Source: Nanobdellota archaeon
GTDB lineage: Archaea > Nanobdellota > Nanobdellia > Parvarchaeales > Parvarchaeaceae
DNA length: 64,000 bases
Assembly: GCA_021807125.1 (NCBI GenBank)
Contig: JAKAPK010000003.1
Coordinates: 796 to 64,795 of the forward strand
Direction: 5' to 3'
Under the pieces are notes generated by a model. It was not told where the DNA came from, did no database searches, and saw nothing but the letters and a program-made list of their open reading frames with translations. Made by a program: the position numbers and the translations under genes. This document shows positions 21,432 through 63,374 of this stretch, piece after piece (the first letter of the stretch is position 1; each line of letters starts with the position of its first letter).

Positions 21432-22769
21432 TCAATCGTTATAGCCAAATGAACGCTGCATATCCTCAAATCGCTGCATATTAATGCGTTTGACTTTCCC
21501 AGTCTTATCAATCAATATCTTTTTGGCGTCCGGAATCGCACAATGGTGATTACCTAATGTATCCTGATACGCACCGGTGTAAGCTATGCATATGAATAAA
21601 TTTTTATCTGAATCTGGTTTTGGCAGATACTTCAATTCAGGTTCATTCTTTGTGTACATGTCATCTGAATCACATGTAACGCCGTCTATGTAAGTTTTTA
21701 CATTTTTTGCACCCAACATATTAATCGGGAACATTGACCATTTTTTATTTATTCCCCATGTATCCGGTAAATCTGTTATAAAACTTCCGTCCATTACATA
21801 CCGGTATTTACCGTTCAAACGTTTTACTTCTATCAGCTTGAATATTGTGAGTTGAGTTGGCGCTGCGACCCAGCGGCCTGCTTCTAACGCCAAGTGTGTT
21901 ATCCTTCCGCGTGAATTCATGTTAAGTCTTTCTATGGCATCAATGATACACTCGAAATATTCTTGCGAATCGTGGCGGGCGTCCCGTGCTTGATCGTAAA
22001 AGGCCATTCCGCCGCCAACATCTACAAGTAAATCGTTTATTAGCCCTTCATCGAAATTTTTAAGAATGACTTGCAACAATGATATTCCCTTTGACAATTT
22101 ATCAAAACTCGCTGGCTCGCCAAAATGCAAATGCAATAGCGCCAAATCGGTTTTTATTAAACTTGCTATGTGTACTGCATCATCAAGCGACATACCAAAT
22201 CTGTCTTTGCCACCCGTATTTAACCGAATACCGAATTTTATTCTTTTCTTGTAAATAGATTTAAGCGTTTTCAACTCCGAAGGGTCCTCCAAGACAAATA
22301 CCACATCAAAACCTCTTTCGTTTAATGAAATAATCTGTTCGAGATAATCTTTAGACTTTGGGCCGTGAAAAATCAGTTTCTTGTGTTTTATCTCGGAAGG
22401 GAAGTTATTCAGAAGTAACTTAAGCTCGAATATATCGCCTATTTCTATTCCAACGCTTTTTTTGGAGCAGTTAATTATTTCTGACATTAATTCTTTCCTA
22501 GGATTTACTTTCATAGGATAAAAGTAACTTAGTTGCATGTTTACTCCCTTTTTATTCACTGCTGCTTCAAAATTAGAAAAAATTGAATCTATTCTGCTTA
22601 TTATAACGTTCGGAAACGTAACGTCCAGCGGTGTCCCAAAGTCCAGTGCTAGTTCTTCCAAATCGAAACTGTGCCCGTATAATTTAAGAACCATTTTCCG
22701 ATTTTGATTGACAAATTTGTACGGTATGTCAATCGGCAATTTAGCCTGATAAGCCGTATCTGATTTCAT
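21432..22769 (-). CDS. PLP-dependent (fold type III) decarboxylase, short SpeA-like arginine decarboxylase
   Basis: FGTPLDVTFPNVI.., YFYPMKVNPR (PLP-Lys context, compare SpeA YPIKVNQ), LLHLHFG, VDVGGGMA, DGVTCDSDD and TGAYQDTLGNHH parallel SpeA motifs. The start overlaps the helicase stop (ATGA). Confidence 0.75.
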   Translation of the reverse strand: MKSDTAYQAKLPIDIPYKFVNQNRKMVLKLYGHSFDLEELALDFGTPLDVTFPNVIISRIDSIFSNFEAAVNKKGVNMQLSYFYPMKVNPRKELMSEIINCSKKSVGIEIGDIFELKLLLNNFPSEIKHKKLIFHGPKSKDYLEQIISLNERGFDVVFVLEDPSELKTLKSIYKKRIKFGIRLNTGGKDRFGMSLDDAVHIASLIKTDLALLHLHFGEPASFDKLSKGISLLQVILKNFDEGLINDLLVDVGGGMAFYDQARDARHDSQEYFECIIDAIERLNMNSRGRITHLALEAGRWVAAPTQLTIFKLIEVKRLNGKYRYVMDGSFITDLPDTWGINKKWSMFPINMLGAKNVKTYIDGVTCDSDDMYTKNEPELKYLPKPDSDKNLFICIAYTGAYQDTLGNHHCAIPDAKKILIDKTGKVKRINMQRFEDMQRSFGYND

Positions 22770-25447
22770 AATTGTTCCACGATGCGGTTATACAGCAATT
22801 CTCCCTTTACTTTCTTTTCTTTTAATAATTTTACGAACAGATACGGGTCTTTTATAATTTCAAGCGCTTTTTTGGCGTGTTCTTCAAAAGTACGTATCTG
22901 CATAGGTTTAGGTTCGTTCATATCTAGTCTTAACCCTAATTTGCCAGTGTTTATGTTTCCGCGTAACCCTACAAAACCTACGGCTATATCGACATCTTTC
23001 TCGTTTACACCTGCATCGGCAGAAAATATGCGCCTGTACACCGCAAGTTGCCTTCTATGGTTGCTAACCCTATCTTCTGTCTTATCGGTCTTGTAGTCCA
23101 ATAAAACGAAGCGTTTACCGTCTTCTGATTCATATATCGCGTCTATTTTTGCCAAGAAACTCATGTTACTAGACAACGAAGGAAAAACGGAATTCATTTG
23201 CAGCTCTATTTCCTTTTCTGCGGCTATTTCCTTTGTTCCTTTTGCCAAGAGTTGCCTGTCTATTTCTTTTATATTTTCCAAGAACCGCATGCTTTCAGAA
23301 TCTATAGATTCCTCGTCCAGTTCCTTCTTGAACATCTTTTCGGCGATTCTGTGCACCCCTGTGCCCAATTCTGCCGCTTCACTTATTTCAGGCATGTGTA
23401 GGATGCGTTTTTTAAAAAGACCGAAAGGATCCGAAACTATTTCTTCTACAAGAGAATAAGATAGTTTGTCTATCTTGCTTAGATACGCTGATAGCGCATC
23501 CATAACCCAGGTATCCTTCTTTTCCAGGGCCATCTTAGCTTCCTCATATCTTTTATGCACGAAAAGAGAATATGCTTCATCGTACTTCTTAGAGATAGGT
23601 GCTACTTCCGCCTCTTCATCCATAACTTCACGGCTTATCAGGTTGCCTATGAGATAACGATTCTCGAGGTCATTATTGGTGCATATGTAAAGTCCTTTTT
23701 TTGCCCTCGTGAATGAAACAAAATCGACCCTTAAGTGCTCTTCCATCAGCTCTTCCCTGACATCTACCCCATTCACGCTCTTGATTATGGCGTACACTAT
23801 GGCGTCTATTGCGCTGAGGGTCTCAGATATCTTTTTCGGAATATAAATGACATTGTCAAATTCAAGTCCTTTGGATTTGTGCACTGTTGTAAGGACTATG
23901 TCCTTTTCTTTTTCGGCGATTTCGTAGTTTTCATCAGTCATTGACAAATACGTGAAAAAATCGTCTCTTTCCGGCTTCTCTAGAACATCGAATGCTTCCT
24001 TTATATTTTTGAGCATAGCCGAAGCGGTAGCGTGGTAGTCCTTGCCTATCGAGACTGATATGGGCATTATTATCCTATCAAACAAATCGTATATCGCCGG
24101 AAAGGTTACAGCTGCTTCTTTGTACCTGAAGAACGGTGCGGCTTCACGTTTAAGCTGTTCATCAGTAAGTTTTTTGGCGTGATATCTCTCCGATATTGAG
24201 AATGCCTCCTTTAGAATAACGCCAGAAAAAGGTGTAAATAGCGCGTTTATAACACTTTCGTCGTCGTCATAAAGCAGGCCCCTAAGAAAGGTAACTATAG
24301 TCTCCTTTGCTTTTTCTGACACCGATGAGCTTACTGTGGTCGAATAGTCCACTCCTTTGGAGTCAAGCATTTCTGATACATGCACGATCTGATCGTTCGT
24401 ACGCGTTATTATTGCACACTTTTCACCGTTCGGTATCATCATAAGTTTCTTTACTGCCGCCTTTATAGGATCCCTTGCTATTATTAGAGAGACTTCACCC
24501 TGGATGTTCTTACTGCTTTTTAACAAGCTCAACTCTTCGCCGTAAGATTTATCCGAAGTATTAGAAAGGAAATGTGTTTTTGCGTAGTCAAGTATGGCCT
24601 GGGAACTTCTGTAATTTTCCCCTTTTGTAACGCGTTTTATGCCCGGTAAACTTTCGAATTTCCTGAAATTGCCTATACTCCCTCCTTGAAAACCAAATAT
24701 TGCCTGTTTTCTATCGCCTACCAAAAAAAGCTCGTCTCCGCTTTCTATCGCTATTCTTGCTTCCAGTTCATTTACATCCTGAAGCTCGTCTACGAGCACG
24801 TATTTAAAATGTTTATATGACTTGTCGTAGCTCTTTATGAAGTTTAGTAACATGTCTGCGTAGTCTATGTGCTTTGGCGGTTTGAAAGCTTCGTAATCCT
24901 TGAAAGCCTGCAAAAAATATCCTAAAAGCATAATGAGCTCTTCATAGCTTACATTTGACATTTTCTCGGTTTCGTATATCAGCTGCAACTGCTCAGCGGT
25001 CCTCTTGGAGTCAACATTCTCCGGCATTATACTGAAACTTTTAAGATATCTTACTGCATTAACTATTTTTGGAACGAGCTCGGAGGCTACGTATTCTTGG
25101 CTATAATTGAACGCTTTGTTTTTCTGGAGACTTTTGAATACGGCATATCGCATTGGATTATCGCTTATTACTTCGTGTTCGCCCTTGGTCTTGACGAGAT
25201 AATCGTATGTAAAACTATGAAATGTGTGTACCCCTATCTTATATGGCCTTATGCCCTTTAAACCCGCTTCGTCTATCTTGTCTGTTATCCGTTGTCGCAT
25301 CTCCTCCGCTGCCTTTATAGTGAAAGTTATGCACAGTATCTCTTCTTCCTTCGCTCCTGATTTCAACAGTTCCACGACTTTTTCAGCCAAAGATGTCGTC
25401 TTGCCCGTGCCAGGGTTCGCAATGATTAGTGTGCCGCTTATCGCCAT
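22766..25447 (-). CDS. UvrD/PcrA-type superfamily 1 helicase fused to a C-terminal PD-(D/E)xK (RecB/Cas4-like) nuclease
   Basis: Walker A ANPGTGKTT, motif II VLVDELQDVN, TVHKSKGLEFDNV and VSFTRAKKGLYI. C-terminal nuclease motifs GTGVHRIAE, IDAIY.., LLDYKTDK and RRQLAVYRRIF. Confidence 0.88.
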   Translation of the reverse strand: MAISGTLIIANPGTGKTTSLAEKVVELLKSGAKEEEILCITFTIKAAEEMRQRITDKIDEAGLKGIRPYKIGVHTFHSFTYDYLVKTKGEHEVISDNPMRYAVFKSLQKNKAFNYSQEYVASELVPKIVNAVRYLKSFSIMPENVDSKRTAEQLQLIYETEKMSNVSYEELIMLLGYFLQAFKDYEAFKPPKHIDYADMLLNFIKSYDKSYKHFKYVLVDELQDVNELEARIAIESGDELFLVGDRKQAIFGFQGGSIGNFRKFESLPGIKRVTKGENYRSSQAILDYAKTHFLSNTSDKSYGEELSLLKSSKNIQGEVSLIIARDPIKAAVKKLMMIPNGEKCAIITRTNDQIVHVSEMLDSKGVDYSTTVSSSVSEKAKETIVTFLRGLLYDDDESVINALFTPFSGVILKEAFSISERYHAKKLTDEQLKREAAPFFRYKEAAVTFPAIYDLFDRIIMPISVSIGKDYHATASAMLKNIKEAFDVLEKPERDDFFTYLSMTDENYEIAEKEKDIVLTTVHKSKGLEFDNVIYIPKKISETLSAIDAIVYAIIKSVNGVDVREELMEEHLRVDFVSFTRAKKGLYICTNNDLENRYLIGNLISREVMDEEAEVAPISKKYDEAYSLFVHKRYEEAKMALEKKDTWVMDALSAYLSKIDKLSYSLVEEIVSDPFGLFKKRILHMPEISEAAELGTGVHRIAEKMFKKELDEESIDSESMRFLENIKEIDRQLLAKGTKEIAAEKEIELQMNSVFPSLSSNMSFLAKIDAIYESEDGKRFVLLDYKTDKTEDRVSNHRRQLAVYRRIFSADAGVNEKDVDIAVGFVGLRGNINTGKLGLRLDMNEPKPMQIRTFEEHAKKALEIIKDPYLFVKLLKEKKVKGELLYNRIVEQL

Positions 25448-27586: not shown

Positions 27587-28465
27587 TTACTTGTTTCTAA
27601 TTATTCTGTCTGCCCAATAAGACCAATAAGGACCTAAGTTTTTTTGTATATCTTTCCTGTTTAGTTTATAGCCGCTAAAAAAGGACTTTAGCATTTCACC
27701 CATATACTTGGCCTTTTGTGCGTCTAGATACTCCGGTGTTTGTGCCGGCCCTCCTTTCAATCCAATGTCGTCCGTGCTATACCTGTCTTCTGGCTTATTT
27801 GTATAATGATGCAGATTTACTGCAAAATGTGTATACTTGCCTAGTTGCAATCCAGTCGCAAGGGACATCTGCGTCAGGAGGATACATCCGATGAATATGT
27901 TTCTTGCTAAGCCTCCGAGAGCTATGTCATTAGATCTCATCATATAAGTTGCATTGAGACAGCTATTATTATCAGTATAAAATTGGATGTCGATAGAACA
28001 CGGTGTGTAACTTCTAAGAACATCTGACGGCCTCCTTATGACTATGTTCGCCTGCCTAGTCGACGGATCTGCGCGAAGCATGTCTACGCATCGGGCCCAT
28101 TGTTTCACTTTACCGCCAAATATCCTTTCACCGTACGTGTATGGATATTTACCGCTTTTCCCGCGCCAATTGTTATAAAACTTCCACACCCTACCAACAT
28201 TGCCAGGGTTCAATCCAAGAAGTATGTCTAAAGTTTCAACGAGCAGCCCCCTACTTATCTTATTATGCCATATCTTTGTCGGGTCGTTAACTTCTATCAA
28301 AACATTGTAAATCTCTCGCATAACCGTGTGGTCATATCCTTGAAGACACCAGGGACCGGTCTTTCTATCCGTATAAACTCCATTTTTAAAAAGTGCATAT
28401 TTTGTCTTATTTACTGCATCGGCTATATCAGAAGACTCTATCCCCATGAGCGTGTCCAATCTCAT
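27587..28465 (-). CDS. divergent thymidylate synthase (ThyA) fold protein; possible dUMP hydroxymethylase-type paralog
   Basis: TPCSIDIQFY (compare ThyA PPCHxxxQFY, catalytic Cys), MMRSNDIALGGLARNI (compare RSxDxxLGxPFNI) and NLHHYTN (compare HxYxNH). Last gene of a three-gene co-directional set. Confidence 0.7.
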   Translation of the reverse strand: MRLDTLMGIESSDIADAVNKTKYALFKNGVYTDRKTGPWCLQGYDHTVMREIYNVLIEVNDPTKIWHNKISRGLLVETLDILLGLNPGNVGRVWKFYNNWRGKSGKYPYTYGERIFGGKVKQWARCVDMLRADPSTRQANIVIRRPSDVLRSYTPCSIDIQFYTDNNSCLNATYMMRSNDIALGGLARNIFIGCILLTQMSLATGLQLGKYTHFAVNLHHYTNKPEDRYSTDDIGLKGGPAQTPEYLDAQKAKYMGEMLKSFFSGYKLNRKDIQKNLGPYWSYWADRIIRNK

Positions 28466-28511
28466 AGAGTTAACTATGGATGCAGCAACTATTTAAGTGC
28501 GAATTATGAAT

Positions 28512-28778
28512 TCACACAAGTTGTGACTTAAATTCTTTTCGTTTTTCAACGAAATGACTTATATACGGACAATCTGGCCGAACCTTTAGTCCTTTCTTTT
28601 TAGCCAGATTAAAGGCTTCCTCTGCTAGCTTAGCGGCTACTCCGTTTCCTCTGTCCTCCGGCGGAGTAAATGTATGGTATATACTCATTATATTTCCCCG
28701 AATGCGGTACAAAAGTTCTGCTTCGCCATGCTCCGTTTTTAGGGACATTCTCCCCGTTTCATGAGTTTTTATGTCCAT
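28512..28778 (-). CDS. mini-GNAT N-acetyltransferase (YjdJ type)
   Basis: 88 aa. HTFTPPEDRGNGVAAKLAEEAFNLAKKKGLKVRPDCPYISHF fits the single-domain GNAT_acetyltran (YjdJ) pattern. Confidence 0.75.
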   Translation of the reverse strand: MDIKTHETGRMSLKTEHGEAELLYRIRGNIMSIYHTFTPPEDRGNGVAAKLAEEAFNLAKKKGLKVRPDCPYISHFVEKRKEFKSQLV

Positions 28779-28841
28779 GTAAATTACTACAAACTAATCA
28801 AATAAATATTTAGCAATTTTTATTAAATGATGCTTAAAAAT

Positions 28842-29780
28842 TTATGCTTTTATTTTCAAGTCTTCCTCTGACTGCTTGAATTTTCTTATCCTGGTGTCTG
28901 CACCTGTGAGTAACCTGTAATACTTGCTGAATTCGCACAAACTATGCTCTACGTTCCTTAATGTCAAGTCATTGCCATGCCAAAATTTAAAATGTAAACC
29001 CAATCTTTCGAAATGAAACCTTTGATCTTCGCGTAGTATTTTTATAAGATCTGCATATGAGAACGCGTCTTTACATTTGAAAATGTAATCAAGACCCCTC
29101 CTACAGCCTGGACCTGCATTAACCCAATCATCCTCGGAAAATTTTATTATGCCGGAATAATTAATGTCTATTACTGCTTCATATGCAAGAAAATCGCCGA
29201 AGTGTGTTATACTCTTTATAACAGAGTGTGCCTCCTCCAAAGACTTTGAATTGATAATCCCATAAAAGTAACGGTCGAAATTCCTTACTATATCGTTTTG
29301 TATCACGCCGTAAACCATATTTGGAAGTTTTTTTTCGTAGCCGCCATACTTTGCACCGGACACCATAAACGCATTTGTAAATACTGGTTTTCTGGAGTCT
29401 TCTATCTTTTTCAACGTCCTATAGATTTTGTCTGCATCGAAATTTGAAACGTGTTGAAAACCTATTGCTCTGTGTGATTCTATTTTATTGAATATCCTAT
29501 AAATCAGAATATTGAATATTACGTCTTCTGGTTTTCCCCTGCCAATTATTTCATTTTTAACGTAAAGAGTGCCCCTGTCCAGTTCCCTGTAAACGTTAGT
29601 GAATTTGTATTTTCTAAGTATTTCATCGTTTGTCCATGGTTGCGGAAGTTTTTCCACAAATCTTTTGTAGAAGATGTTTTGTCTTTCTGTAACAAACCTA
29701 AAAAATAGGTCCAGATTCTCCTTATAAACAGTAAGTGAATTATTTCGTTTTGGTTCGTAAATGGTTATTGAATTATTCAT
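28842..29780 (-). CDS. protein resembling phage DNA base (thymidine) hypermodification enzymes (aGPT-Pplase / 5-hmdU-DNA-kinase helical-domain families)
   Basis: The N-terminal block ERQNIFYKRFVEKLPQPWTNDEILRKYKFTNVYRELDRGT matches my recollection of the conserved ER..I...R..G.P.PWT.D.IL..Y.F.NV.RE.DR.T block in 'putative DNA base hypermodification protein' families. No P-loop is present. The assignment rests on memory of the family and is not a search result. Confidence 0.55.
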   Translation of the reverse strand: MNNSITIYEPKRNNSLTVYKENLDLFFRFVTERQNIFYKRFVEKLPQPWTNDEILRKYKFTNVYRELDRGTLYVKNEIIGRGKPEDVIFNILIYRIFNKIESHRAIGFQHVSNFDADKIYRTLKKIEDSRKPVFTNAFMVSGAKYGGYEKKLPNMVYGVIQNDIVRNFDRYFYGIINSKSLEEAHSVIKSITHFGDFLAYEAVIDINYSGIIKFSEDDWVNAGPGCRRGLDYIFKCKDAFSYADLIKILREDQRFHFERLGLHFKFWHGNDLTLRNVEHSLCEFSKYYRLLTGADTRIRKFKQSEEDLKIKA

Positions 29781-29819
29781 AGATTAGAGAAGATATTCTC
29801 ATATATTATTATATTAGGG

Positions 29820-29837
29820 TTGTGCATATATGCACAA
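29820..29837. promoter_or_regulatory. perfect 18-bp palindrome TTGTGCATATATGCACAA in a divergent promoter region
   Basis: Self-complementary over all 18 nt. Lies between the start of the hypermodification-like gene (29780, minus) and the 4-TM gene (29872, plus), flanked by AT-rich TATA-like boxes on both sides (TATTTAAA at 29843-29850). Confidence 0.5.
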
Positions 29838-29871
29838 AATAGTATTTAAACGGGCGGCATAATAATTAGTT

Positions 29872-30288
29872 ATGAAACAGATAAAAAAGTCACTATTATT
29901 GGAAGAGCGCCTTTGGATAATTATTAGCATCATTTTGATAGTTGTTGGTACATTGCTATGGCTTTACGCCGATTACGCAATGGTTTCTGGTCTAACTTCA
30001 TGGTCATCATCATACACTTCATGGTTTCCCCTTATATATTCAGGTATAATCCTTCTTGTCTTTGGTATAGCTGTATGGGCTGTCGTTGATCATCACGGCA
30101 AACTTACACTAACGAGCATTGTTCTTTTAGTAGTTGGTGTAGTTGGTTGGGCATATGCAGATTACAGTTGGCTTAGTGGTTATTTGTCCACGACCATGTG
30201 GTATTATCTACTTATGTCGACGATTGCGCTTATAGTAATAGGAACTGCGCTTTGGACATATACCGACATTAAAACTAAACTACTCTAA
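29872..30288 (+). CDS. small 4-TM membrane protein with internal duplication
   Basis: Two homologous halves (LWLYADYAMVSGLTSW / GWAYADYSWLSGYLST, each followed by a second helix ending ..WAVVDHH / ..WTYTDIK). Confidence 0.6.
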   Translation: MKQIKKSLLLEERLWIIISIILIVVGTLLWLYADYAMVSGLTSWSSSYTSWFPLIYSGIILLVFGIAVWAVVDHHGKLTLTSIVLLVVGVVGWAYADYSWLSGYLSTTMWYYLLMSTIALIVIGTALWTYTDIKTKLL

Positions 30289-30382: not shown

Positions 30383-31165
30383 ATGGCTAAACTTGTATTT
30401 TTAGGCACCGCTGCTGCCGGTTTTGTCGGCAGTAAGAGACAACAGTCTGCAGTCTATTTTGATGGCTTGCTTCTTGATTGCGGAGCAGATGTTATCGGTA
30501 GACTAGAAGATTTAAAATTAGCGGGTAATCTCGTCGCGATATTGATAACACATCTACATTATGACCATTATGGTGGACTTTTTAGCTTACTTGTTAATTT
30601 AGCTATAAAGGAAGATGTTAAAATTAAAATGGGAGCAAAAACGAAAAAACCGAAGCTAACAATATACGCTCCTGGTGGACTTAACACAATATTAGAAGCA
30701 ATAAAAGTAACTGGAAAAGTGTATGACTTCGTTTTTGATAGACTTGACTTAAAATTCATTGAAGTTAATACTTCATTAAATTTTGAAGAAGCAGGAAAAA
30801 AAATAAAACCAATATTGATGGACCATGGAAAAACTGTTGACTTCGGTTATTTAATTGAAACAAATGGCTTTAAGCTTTTTTATGGCGGAGACTCAAGTTT
30901 TCCATCTAATGTACAAAACATAAGGGCAGATTATTTAATACATGAGGCAACTTTTCAGAATAAATACATAGATGCAGCAAAAGCGAGCGGACACAGCACG
31001 GCTAAGCAGGCTGCGGAAGCTGCAACCAAATGTGGCGCGAAAAAACTTTTTTTAACACACGTAACAAACGTAATAGTTCCAGAAAGTGAACTTGAACTAG
31101 AAGCTAAAAGAGTATTCGCAAATACTGTACTTCCTAATGACATGCAAAGTTTTGAATTGGATTAA
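30383..31165 (+). CDS. MBL-fold metallo-hydrolase (RNase Z/ElaC-like)
   Basis: LLLDCGAD and the metal motif ILITHLHYDHYGG, plus later H/D ligands (LIHEATF, GHSTA, LTHV). Confidence 0.8.
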   Translation: MAKLVFLGTAAAGFVGSKRQQSAVYFDGLLLDCGADVIGRLEDLKLAGNLVAILITHLHYDHYGGLFSLLVNLAIKEDVKIKMGAKTKKPKLTIYAPGGLNTILEAIKVTGKVYDFVFDRLDLKFIEVNTSLNFEEAGKKIKPILMDHGKTVDFGYLIETNGFKLFYGGDSSFPSNVQNIRADYLIHEATFQNKYIDAAKASGHSTAKQAAEAATKCGAKKLFLTHVTNVIVPESELELEAKRVFANTVLPNDMQSFELD

Positions 31166-61649: not shown

Positions 61650-63374
61650 ATGGTGGACGTCACATTAAAGTTTCATGAAGATGACAAGGGTACGACCGTT
61701 GAATCTTTTTCCGATGCAGAAGCTAAAAGATTATCTAGATTAGTAACTAACGTAAACAGCAATATATACGCAATAAAAATAGGCAGGTACCTGCCTCCAG
61801 AACAGGCTGGTGCATTACAGTCAAGATACAGCAGGACGAGTCTCACTGGCAGGGCACTGCTGCTTAAGGAGTTTCTTCCGAACAGAAACAAGGGCAGGGA
61901 ATTTTTTAAGGCCTGGCTAGCTGACTTCGGTGACGACTCAATACAGGAAATGCCTGGTGGACTGCCTCTTTCCTGCGAATTTATATCGGATCTTGCCGCA
62001 ATGAAGATAGAAGAAAGCCGAATAGGAGCCTCCTTCATAAGAAAATCGACAAGATACGTAGCTTTTGATAAGAAACTGCCAAATGGAGAGTTCATGTTCT
62101 ACAATGATAAGCGTATAAGTGAATCGAAATTTTCGGATGAGTATACCTCTTTGATGAGGGCGCTATTCGAATCTTACACTAGAAATATGCCAGTAATGCA
62201 AAAATATGTCGCTGAAATAAATCCTTTTGAGGAACAGACCTTCTCGATAAACGGCGAAAGCTTCAAACTGCCCGAATTTAAACATGGGCTAGAAGAAAAA
62301 CTCGGAATAAGCGAGGAGGAACTAAAGAAAGCGTACGATTCTTCAGTAAAGGCCTATGCTCTTGACTTGTTGCGTGATTATCTGCCCTTATCCACACTTA
62401 CTCACATGGGTATAAGTATGAATGCCAGAGCATATGACAACTTGATAAGTAAATTAAGTGCGAGTCAACTGGCAGAGTTCAGATGGATAGGCAAACGCAT
62501 ATCCGTTGAATTAGAGAAATTAGCGCCGTCTTTAATAGGAAAGTCCAGGGAAAAATATCAAAACAAGCAGGTGGAATTCCTGACAAAAAAGGAAATTAAT
62601 ATTCGCAATTCGCTTCAGGACATACTATCCAGCGCTACGCCGGCGGAAAACCCCGAGAGTTGTTCTTTGTTCGATTATACAGGTTATGGAACAGAGAGCC
62701 CTGATGCATACTCTCAGACAATTCTTGCCTCACAAATATTGCATGACAATAGCCGAGGACTGTCGATATCAGACGCGAAACGCATAATTGAAAGCTTGTC
62801 AGCACAAAGAAAAAAGGAGATAATAACTGCTTACGTAGGGGACAGAAAGGACAGAAGACAAAAGCCTGGCCGGGCATTCGAAAGCGTTAATTATTCGTTT
62901 GATTTGACAGGGCGCATAGGCATCTTAAGGGACTACAAAAGACATCGCATTGGCACGCAAATAATGCAGCCCGTGTCACCAAACCTCGGATTCGAAGTAC
63001 GAAAGCAATACGACGCTATAGGGATAAGTGATGATTACCGAAGCAAAATGGCGGAGGTAAAGGCGCTCTATGACAGAATGTATATGGAACTGCCGGACGA
63101 GGCCCAGTATGTAGTCACGTTCGGATTCAAGTCGCGTTGGTCATACTCGTTCAATGCAAGGCAGGCATTTCATCTGATAGAGTTAAGGACATCACCACAA
63201 GGACATGAGGACTATCGCCGTCTTACGCAAGATATTTATCGCGCTATAGATAAGGTTCACCCAACTATCGCAAGTTACATCGAATATGTCAATCTTAAAA
63301 GATTCGAACTAGGCCGCCTTAATTCTGAGATAAGGATAGCGCTTAAACGAAAACAGGTTAAGAAAACGGCATAA
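61650..63374 (+). CDS. long-form ThyX-like (Thy1 family, flavin-dependent thymidylate synthase-like) protein
   Basis: YKRHRIGTQ (the RHR of the ThyX motif) and HLIELRTSPQGHEDYRRL (compare the ThyX ..lR....AQ.EiR.. helix). The N-terminal half (QSRYSRTSL) looks like a degenerate second Thy1-like module. Confidence 0.55.
   Translation: MVDVTLKFHEDDKGTTVESFSDAEAKRLSRLVTNVNSNIYAIKIGRYLPPEQAGALQSRYSRTSLTGRALLLKEFLPNRNKGREFFKAWLADFGDDSIQEMPGGLPLSCEFISDLAAMKIEESRIGASFIRKSTRYVAFDKKLPNGEFMFYNDKRISESKFSDEYTSLMRALFESYTRNMPVMQKYVAEINPFEEQTFSINGESFKLPEFKHGLEEKLGISEEELKKAYDSSVKAYALDLLRDYLPLSTLTHMGISMNARAYDNLISKLSASQLAEFRWIGKRISVELEKLAPSLIGKSREKYQNKQVEFLTKKEINIRNSLQDILSSATPAENPESCSLFDYTGYGTESPDAYSQTILASQILHDNSRGLSISDAKRIIESLSAQRKKEIITAYVGDRKDRRQKPGRAFESVNYSFDLTGRIGILRDYKRHRIGTQIMQPVSPNLGFEVRKQYDAIGISDDYRSKMAEVKALYDRMYMELPDEAQYVVTFGFKSRWSYSFNARQAFHLIELRTSPQGHEDYRRLTQDIYRAIDKVHPTIASYIEYVNLKRFELGRLNSEIRIALKRKQVKKTA

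Follow-up and report, generated by a model that had tools for sequence, protein, structure and literature searches.

A 64,000-nucleotide stretch of the chromosome of a Nanobdellota archaeon (contig JAKAPK010000003.1, positions 796 to 64,795; the whole stretch is hereafter called the window) carries three minus-strand genes that encode a protein of the HMUDK_hel family, a small single-domain acetyltransferase of the GNAT type and a divergent paralogue of the thymidylate synthase (TS) ThyA. The real unit in this cassette is the HMUDK_hel and ThyA-like pair, whose context elsewhere is one of conflict. On balance, we lean towards a reading of the cassette as a minimal HMUDK_hel/ThyA-like module in which the ThyA paralogue makes 5-hydroxymethyl-dUMP or a like nucleotide, the HMUDK_hel protein contributes cysteine chemistry, and the role of the whole lies in virus-host conflict. 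What the chromosome carries is a pared-down version of a two-gene module for nucleotide modification, with no kinase and no effector; it is a genuine though incomplete relative of known systems and not a full hypermodification pathway.

The open reading frames (ORFs) for the HMUDK_hel protein (28842-29780), the GNAT (28512-28778) and the ThyA-like protein (27587-28465) appear as co-directional minus-strand entries in the ORF list and are separated by gaps of 63 bp and 46 bp. A preliminary description of the window, made from the sequence alone, had reported this arrangement together with a set of short peptide motifs, and both the gene positions and the motifs are confirmed. Identical or near-identical copies of the cassette are present on five contigs from independent samples, one of which is part of assembly GCA_021788735.1. 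Across the three genes the independent contigs differ at 3, 1 and 0 nucleotides, and at a strain identity of ~99.6% the dN/dS ratio between them is uninformative.

Fold and conserved residues of the HMUDK_hel protein

The 312-aa product (28842..29780, minus strand) matches the HMUDK_hel family (PF18723, formerly aGPT-Pplase clade 1) with an E-value of 2.8e-72 and 243.9 bits against a cut-off of 25, residues 22-290 aligning with positions 3-274 of the 281-position profile, and it also matches PHROG 2396 (E 9.7e-65). The family has an all-helical fold like that of the helix-hairpin-helix (HhH) glycosylases and forms 6,263 clusters at 50% identity (E<=1e-3). Its members include the M6-like gp55 and the C-terminal half of SP10 gp186, which bears out the earlier placement of the 312-aa protein in a phage hypermodification family. 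Ten residues (R33, R65, D68, F197, D205, G223, G225, C282, E283 and K286) are 100% conserved among 154 HMUDK_hel members, 75 of them viral and 79 cellular, and the window protein retains every one of these universally conserved positions. Its recognizable motifs are FTNVYRELD (60-68), GDF..Y....D (195-205), GPG (223-225) and C282-E283-x-x-K286.

The AlphaFold2 (AF2) model of the protein has a predicted local distance difference test score (pLDDT) of 92.8. When it was compared with viral models using Foldseek, the best match was SP10 gp186 at a template modelling (TM) score of 0.80; this protein is a fusion with a 5-hydroxymethyldeoxyuridine (5-hmdU) DNA kinase, and its C-terminal half is HMUDK_hel. 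The HMUDK_hel proteins of PhiW-14 and phiRSL1 matched at TM 0.65-0.77, with ADDT proteins farther away. Among solved structures the closest is PaMx11 gp46 (8z2n), a glycinyltransferase acting on 5-phosphomethyldeoxyuridine (5-PmdU), with a Foldseek probability of 1.0 and TM 0.45-0.49, followed by the queuine-salvage protein QNG1 and then by the HhH glycosylases AGOG and OGG1. Sequence searches of the PDB with the 312-aa protein and with a 40-sequence profile gave no significant match.

The relationship to ADDT extends to short motifs. The window segment VEHSLCEF resembles VETVLCKW of ADDT, and the window hairpin FGDFLAYEAVID resembles the ADDT hairpin FGPWIGFKIADM, with similar spacing between the two elements. 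In ADDT, the cysteine is catalytic and attacks C6 of 5-phosphomethyl-dU (PMC8989533; PMC13458397). Because its motifs and fold resemble those of an enzyme with a catalytic cysteine, we infer, from fold and motif resemblance only, that HMUDK_hel likewise uses a cysteine to act on a pyrimidine substituted at C5. It is not the enzyme that substitutes the base, as had been supposed from the sequence. In one related Yuavirus the gene labelled 'aGPT-Pplase1', the syntenic equivalent of M6 gp55, belongs to PF18723 (E 7e-56), and the adjoining 'aGPT-Pplase2' belongs to PF18724. The latter family, ADDT, is the one that carries out the substitution. No member of it was detected in the window, and the M6 reaction worked without gp55.

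Fusion proteins offer an indication of the substrate. Some family members carry an N-terminal Thymidylate_kin domain (P0201, P0208 and P0226) and others carry C-terminal MazG and MazG_C domains (P0212, P0215 and P0252). Since these fusion partners and the neighbours of HMUDK_hel genes act on free nucleotides, the substrate of HMUDK_hel is quite possibly a nucleotide monomer rather than DNA.

A ThyA paralogue predicted to act as a hydroxymethylase

The 292-aa product (27587..28465, minus strand) is a ThyA-fold paralogue whose fold and residue pattern predict a pyrimidine-nucleotide C5-hydroxymethylase. Its homologues start at the residue aligned to window Met7, and the true start is therefore probably 28447, not 28465, giving a 286-aa product. 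The protein matches Thymidylat_synt (PF00303) with an E-value of 7.9e-16 and 58.4 bits over core residues 93-226 only, and it falls far short of the cut-offs of all NCBIfam TS equivalogs (at best 48.7 versus 174.55 bits for TIGR03283 and 47.1 versus 327 bits for NF002495). In an alignment numbered on E. coli ThyA, the reference sequence of which was verified against PDB 1aob, it retains E58, Y94, R126, C146, R166, S167, D169, N177, H207 and Y209, which include the catalytic nucleophile and the Arg/Ser residues that bind dUMP, while W80 is deleted, L143 is changed to Tyr, H147 to Ser and R127 to Gln. The C-terminal 65 residues cannot be aligned to E. coli ThyA; the model predicts two helices in this region, as in the CMP hydroxymethylase MilA. 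W80 and H147 are also replaced in the M6-like phage ThyA paralogue (W80 by Met, H147 by Asn) and in the corresponding protein of DS-4, a cellular anti-phage system of E. coli.

In thymidylate synthase the exocyclic methylene intermediate is protected by Trp80, together with Leu143, His147 and the closing C-terminus; these features also support hydride transfer, and in mutants at the equivalent tryptophan external nucleophiles trap the intermediate. Their loss from the window protein would therefore fit a hydroxymethylase. The AF2 model (pLDDT 90.0) superposes on MilA at TM 0.77-0.80, compared with 0.52-0.63 for thymidylate synthases. Residue pattern and model together indicate that the protein is probably a hydroxymethylase and not a thymidylate synthase, and the equivalog scores, the lost residues and the MilA match agree with its initial description as a divergent paralogue distinct from ordinary ThyA.

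The retained N177 argues for uracil specificity as far as the sequence can tell. An Asp occupies this position in several HMUDK_hel-linked homologues (P0137-P0139, L016:3418-4362 and L070:8964-10037), for which cytosine rather than uracil specificity is therefore predicted, and the HMUDK_hel/ThyA-like module may accordingly exist in hmU-type and hmC-type versions. Only 22 homologues of the window protein were found at E<=1e-5, and each near one examined is linked to HMUDK_hel; in phages, the nearest matches come from ThyA paralogues encoded by Ackermannviridae and by PaMx11-like and SP10-like phages.

A ThyX-type gene had also been noted in the window, and this assignment stands. The gene (61650-63374, plus strand) encodes a ThyX-like protein of 574 aa that matches Pfam Thy1 in two stretches (E 8.2e-30) and has five near-identical cluster members, and the product may be a tandem, pseudo-dimeric ThyX, although it scores under the TIGR02170 cut-off. 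This atypical character, together with the catalytic Cys, Arg, Asn, His and Tyr kept in the ThyA-like protein, would suit the view that the ThyA-like gene is the organism's ordinary thymidylate synthase and that its neighbours are unrelated. We consider this extremely improbable given the equivalog scores, the loss of W80, L143, H147 and the C-terminus, the small set of homologues with its consistent linkage to HMUDK_hel, and the finding, described below, that the best matches of both genes lie in the same foreign locus.

Linkage of the pair in viruses and cells

HMUDK_hel loci were compared across 80 viral examples (6-kb flanks) and 81 cellular ones (80 genomic loci with 8-kb flanks, plus the window). 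A ThyA-like gene lies near HMUDK_hel in 52/80 viral and 29/81 cellular loci, and in 23 of the latter 29 the two genes are immediate neighbours on one strand, separated by a median of 4 bp. A P-loop 5-hmdU DNA kinase is found near HMUDK_hel in 17/80 viral and 0/81 cellular loci, and ADDT in 3/80 and 0/81, respectively, the ADDT counts being lower bounds from low-sensitivity detection. TIR domains (viral 1/80, cellular 44/81) and Nmad2 (viral 1/80, cellular 38/81) show the opposite distribution. Other cellular neighbours are SLOG, present in TIR-SLOG fusions, SLATT, dCTP-deaminase-like (DCD) proteins, Nmad1, radical SAM proteins, a papain-like protease and ImmA/HTH pairs, and the viral neighbours resemble dUTPase, HD and MazG-type proteins as judged by eye and without a Pfam check. 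What is conserved of the neighbourhood first described is the HMUDK_hel and ThyA-like pair; the three-gene set recurs in none of the 160 other loci.

The closest relatives of both window genes are found together. The best matches of each lie in one Nitrososphaerales metagenome-assembled genome (MAG) locus, with 66% identity for HMUDK_hel and 55% for the TS-like protein, in the order SLATT-TIR-HMUDK_hel-TS-Tmk and with genes for Nmad3, an SLFN-type helicase and AIPR a few kb downstream; a related locus (L087) adjoins Hachiman. Because these best matches share a single foreign locus, the pair has moved as a unit. Further archaea and bacteria carry bare HMUDK_hel-TS pairs (L016, L027, L046 and L077 among them), a recurrence which suggests that the pair is a self-sufficient unit. 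Nor is the module particular to this archaeon, since standalone HMUDK_hel genes are present in Haloferax, Halorubrum, Nitrososphaerales, Thermoplasmata and DPANN genomes.

The free-nucleotide character of many of these associations raises the possibility of a small-molecule or nucleotide-pool pathway of the MilA/MilB type, unrelated to DNA modification, in which 5-hydroxymethyl-(d)UMP would be formed and the base or nucleotide released or converted by a glycosylase-like HMUDK_hel protein. The product could be an antimetabolite or a signal, or the pathway could serve salvage or detoxification of virus-derived hmU nucleotides; whatever is made might then be modified by the GNAT. The fold of the TS-like protein is matched best by MilA, that of HMUDK_hel is like QNG1, which has an HhH fold and works on a free nucleotide, and both the fusions to Tmk and MazG and the neighbouring DCD and dUTPase- or HD-looking proteins involve free-nucleotide enzymes. 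However, no further biosynthetic genes lie near the cassette, and the context elsewhere consists of conflict systems and viral replication modules and not of secondary metabolism. We regard such a pathway as unlikely, with the qualification that its chemistry overlaps that of the conflict module we favour and that purpose is the main difference between them.

Several further architectures were observed around HMUDK_hel. A conserved haloarchaeal cluster (L008, L012, L013, L015 and L017) from cultured Haloarchaeobius, Haloferax, Halorubrum and Halomarina combines TIR, SLATT/DUF4231, a 190-aa protein (absent from L012), a protein of ~300 aa with a rubredoxin-like C-terminus, and HMUDK_hel; it has no ThyA-like gene. 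A recurrent arrangement in Bacteroidota (L024-L078) comprises two HMUDK_hel paralogues of ~294 and ~337 aa, a TIR protein, two TIR-SLOG-cluster genes, a second TIR protein and Nmad2, and resembles a Thoeris-like signalling system built around HMUDK_hel. A 41.7-kb metagenome contig (L090) carries a ThyA-like gene 44% identical to that of the window with Tmk, HMUDK_hel, HD, DUF559, a B12-radical SAM protein and many small ORFs, and looks like a virus or mobile element bearing the same clade of the pair.

The GNAT and the case for DNA hypermodification

Between the two genes of the pair lies the gene for the 88-aa protein (28512..28778, minus strand), a single-domain GNAT of the YjdJ/NATD1 type. 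Its match to Acetyltransf_CG (PF14542; E 1.7e-20, 73.4 bits against a cut-off of 30, residues 13-84 on profile positions 4-78 of 80) supports the original identification. The other 160 HMUDK_hel loci contain no such GNAT, the gene being confined to the contigs of this organism. The closest relatives of the protein, at 56% identity, sit among genes for ribosomal proteins, the carbamoyltransferase ATCase, a tRNA-binding protein and methionyl-tRNA synthetase (MetRS), and those neighbourhoods contain no HMUDK_hel or ThyA-like gene. Most probably the GNAT was inserted in this lineage and does not belong to the core of the module, contrary to the role first given to it.

This bears directly on whether the three genes together could constitute a kinase-less thymidine hypermodification system that writes a thymine derivative, possibly acetylated, into the DNA of the host or of an integrated element. 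Phage homologues of both core genes do lie in thymidine-hypermodification clusters, a GNAT acetylates 5-aminomethyldeoxyuridine (5-NmdU) in PaMx11 (PMC8989533), and the window GNAT is wedged closely between the core genes. Against this, neither ADDT nor the 5-hmdU DNA kinase was detected in the window, no FAD lyase, which creates the amine needed for acetylation in PaMx11, adjoins the cassette, and the M6 reaction dispensed with gp55, while the GNAT itself is missing from every other HMUDK_hel locus and has housekeeping relatives. Replacement of T through the dNTP pool would, moreover, affect the whole genome, and no dNMP kinase for a modified nucleotide is encoded in the window. Hypermodification of self DNA is therefore distinctly unlikely in our assessment. 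The preliminary description of a thymidine hypermodification cassette holds for the protein families, on Pfam and fold evidence, and is not borne out for the pathway, of which the kinase and ADDT were not detected in the 64 kb.

The GNAT could also be imagined to stand in for the absent kinase. By O-acetylating the 5-hydroxymethyl group it would create a leaving group, and HMUDK_hel, through Cys282, could then form the exocyclic methylene and add a nucleophile with no need of phosphorylation. We think this very unlikely. If true, it would amount to a three-enzyme, kinase-independent route to modified uracil in an archaeal nucleotide pool or DNA, and would provide the first activity assigned to the HMUDK_hel family.

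Proposed role of the pair

According to the mechanism we favour, the ThyA-like enzyme would convert dUMP and methylene-folate to 5-hydroxymethyl-dUMP or a similar C5 adduct and not to dTMP. Cys282 of HMUDK_hel would then attack C6 of the 5-substituted uracil, and the enzyme would react further at C5 or on the glycosidic bond; the GNAT would remain outside this core. The role would be one in virus-host conflict of the DS-4 type, and neither the supply of dTMP to the host nor full thymidine hypermodification.

The window was searched for the partners seen in other loci. Profiles for TIR (79 sequences), Nmad2 (39 sequences), the 5-hmdU kinase and ADDT found no match in the whole 64 kb, and neither did single-sequence queries with the DS-4, L087 Tmk and M6-like kinases, Nmad5 and DCD. 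For the 5-hmdU DNA kinase, an 18-viral-kinase HMUDK_HMUD1 profile and M6-like gp54 recovered nothing among window ORFs of at least 50 aa; for ADDT (PF18724), a shallow profile built from 3 sequences likewise gave no match in the window. The absence of an adjacent P-loop kinase, integrase or virion gene, remarked on at the outset, is in agreement with these results, and the cassette can be described as kinase-less.

A number of observations weigh against the proposed role. No effector (TIR, SLATT or SLOG), Nmad protein or kinase was detected in the window, the flanks of the cassette look like housekeeping genes, with a UvrD-PDDEXK fusion ~2 kb away as the nearest possible exception, and the GNAT splits two genes that usually abut. 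Profile-profile comparisons of HMUDK_hel with ADDT, started from one sequence and from an alignment of 4, revealed no relationship, so that the link between the two families is one of Foldseek match and motif resemblance only. No catalytic activity of any HMUDK_hel protein was found in the cited literature, and the in vitro reaction of M6 proceeded in the absence of gp55 (PMC8989533). The recorded effect of DS-4 on lambda is modest, ~1 log, and its mechanism is unstudied (PMC13092281). MilA, the best fold match of the ThyA-like protein, prefers CMP, and the choice between ribo- and deoxyribonucleotide, like the product, is not determinable from sequence. Finally, the ThyX-like protein scores 59.9 bits against the TIGR02170 equivalog cut-off of 87.9 bits.

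Chromosomal setting of the cassette

The cassette is flanked by genes for a major facilitator superfamily (MFS) transporter, a hexapeptide transferase, the UvrD-PDDEXK fusion, a metallo-beta-lactamase (MBL)-fold protein, ATP-binding cassette (ABC) transporter subunits and PadR. The fusion protein (893 aa, 22766-25447, minus strand) joins a UvrD-type helicase to a C-terminal PD-(D/E)XK nuclease, matches the PADLOC GajB hidden Markov models (HMMs) at E 7e-38, and could be a repair or defence helicase-nuclease; the end of its gene overlaps the start of a downstream Orn/Arg decarboxylase-like gene by 4 bp. This GajB-like protein and the MBL protein, which has an Apyc1 Pfam match, were considered as markers of a defence island and rejected, as the UvrD-GajB matches are generic and the MBL gene is conserved in relatives, where its contexts are housekeeping ones. 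PADLOC 2023 contains no model for any of the three cassette proteins.

Divergent from the HMUDK_hel gene is a gene (29872-30288, plus strand) for a 138-aa protein with four predicted transmembrane segments and an internal repeat, W[LA]YADY..SG, that belongs to no Pfam family. The region between the two genes (29781..29871) is a candidate archaeal promoter by virtue of its AT-rich TATA-like boxes 5' of the HMUDK_hel gene: TTTAAATA lies ~65 nt and ATATAATAATATAT ~25-37 nt 5' of the ATG. Similar strings stand before the GNAT and TS genes as well, and the stop codon of HMUDK_hel is followed by an oligo-T tract; the TATA-like strings were picked by eye and are not significant at 37% GC. No tRNA or Rfam RNA was found in the 64-kb window. 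A TreH1_Arch-type trehalase is encoded in the window, the contigs of relatives encode thermosome, LSM and aS21, and one MBL homologue is named as a Thermoplasmata archaeon protein. On these features alone an archaeal source, probably within the Thermoplasmata, is plausible.

Synteny with a related species, whose MBL protein is 72% identical, is kept on the PadR/ABC/PGM side and broken exactly at the MBL gene (window 30383-31165, plus strand, against L175:1-2149). Where the window has the transmembrane protein, the cassette and the MFS gene, the related contig (L175) has an unrelated 392-aa gene; the 138-aa protein, missing at the syntenic position, may belong to the same variable region as the cassette. 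The breakpoint fits a variable region and defines no insertion, for synteny yielded a breakpoint only, from which no integration site or element boundary could be defined.

This break in synteny would also fit a history in which the cassette is what decay has left of a DS-4/Thoeris-like island, or else of a viral module for nucleotide metabolism: the kinase, TIR, SLATT and Nmad genes would have been lost, the GNAT would have landed in the gap, and no current defence function would remain. The closest relatives hold Tmk, TIR, SLATT and Nmad3 around the pair, all of which are missing in the window, and a foreign gene interrupts two genes that normally abut. Yet both ORFs are intact and keep all invariant and catalytic residues, the cassette is nearly identical in independent samples, and bare HMUDK_hel-TS pairs recur elsewhere. 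Decay is, in our judgement, rather improbable, and a minimal module is the interpretation we prefer.

Significance

Iyer et al. (2013), the founding paper, is drawn on here by way of Lee et al. Earlier work has described the protein families, the linkage between them and a role against phage in cells (Iyer et al. 2013 via Lee et al.; Lee et al. 2018, 2021; DeWeirdt et al. 2026). In limited literature searches we encountered no description of archaeal HMUDK_hel occurrences, though these are numerous in genome data, and nothing relevant on an archaeal dUMP hydroxymethylase or on how systems that combine TS and TIR work. What is new here is a kinase-less, effector-less and GNAT-interrupted pair in an archaeon with a separate ThyX-like gene.

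A ThyA-like gene accompanies HMUDK_hel more frequently than do the characterized hypermodification enzymes, and the minimal version in the window offers a simple construct with which to ask what the pair makes and whether it works alone as a unit. Should the pair make 5-hydroxymethyl-dUMP or a derivative in the cell, this would point to defence by modification of the nucleotide pool and would extend the chemistry to archaea; should it be inert, the cassette would be a record of how such islands decay. Above all, the cassette is useful as a minimal system for testing HMUDK_hel activity.

Comparison with known systems

The mildiomycin enzymes MilA and MilB share with the window pair the logic of a hydroxymethylase and a glycosidase-like partner, and the ThyA-like model fits MilA including its C-terminal helices. 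Identity to MilA is 19%, however, MilA is specific for cytosine and for ribonucleotides, the fold of MilB is unlike that of HMUDK_hel, and the window has no antibiotic cluster.

The hypermodification clusters of phages (M6/YuA, PaMx11, ViI, SP10 and PhiW-14) contain an HMUDK_hel family member and a ThyA-like gene with similar substitutions at W80 and H147; in the Yuavirus record the latter is annotated as thymidylate synthase and is presumed to be a dUMP hydroxymethylase. Unlike the window, these phages add a P-loop 5-hmdU DNA kinase, ADDT, tailoring enzymes of the pyridoxal phosphate (PLP), radical SAM or FAD types, and their own DNA polymerase. The kinase and ADDT are necessary and sufficient for thymidine hypermodification in vitro (PMC8989533), and it is to them, not to HMUDK_hel, that the demonstrated activity belongs. 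ADDT (PaMx11 gp46, M6 gp51 and YuA Pplase2) shares with the window HMUDK_hel protein the HhH hairpin, a C-terminal E-x-x-L-C motif and a spacing of ~85-95 residues. The two are nevertheless only 11% identical, and the residue after the Cys is an invariant Glu in HMUDK_hel but a glycine-binding Lys in YuA; the window protein is an ADDT paralogue and not a member of the ADDT family.

Among archaeal relatives, the Nitrososphaerales loci L005-L007 have HMUDK_hel followed by TS on one strand, as in the window. The pair in these loci and in L087 is accompanied by SLATT, ThsB-TIR, Thymidylate_kin, DCD and Nmad3 and lies near Hachiman or an AIPR/SLFN-helicase, whereas the window pair is bare and split by the GNAT.

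The closest known system is DS-4, which the preliminary description did not consider. DS-4 ('NTTI') of E. coli, comprising TS, a dNMP kinase, HMUDK_hel, a ThsB-like TIR protein and Nmad2, has been validated experimentally against phage (DeWeirdt, Mahoney & Laub, Science 2026; PMC13092281). It differs from the window in having the dNMP/adenylate-type kinase, the ThsB-like TIR protein and Nmad2, none of which was detected in the window, and in having no GNAT. The two systems are alike in being cellular and in combining a ThyA-like protein with a standalone HMUDK_hel protein, annotated as a 'putative DNA base hypermodification protein', and the window proteins are 32% (HMUDK_hel; E 2e-29, WP_087900470) and 27% (ThyA-like; E 7e-8) identical to their DS-4 counterparts.

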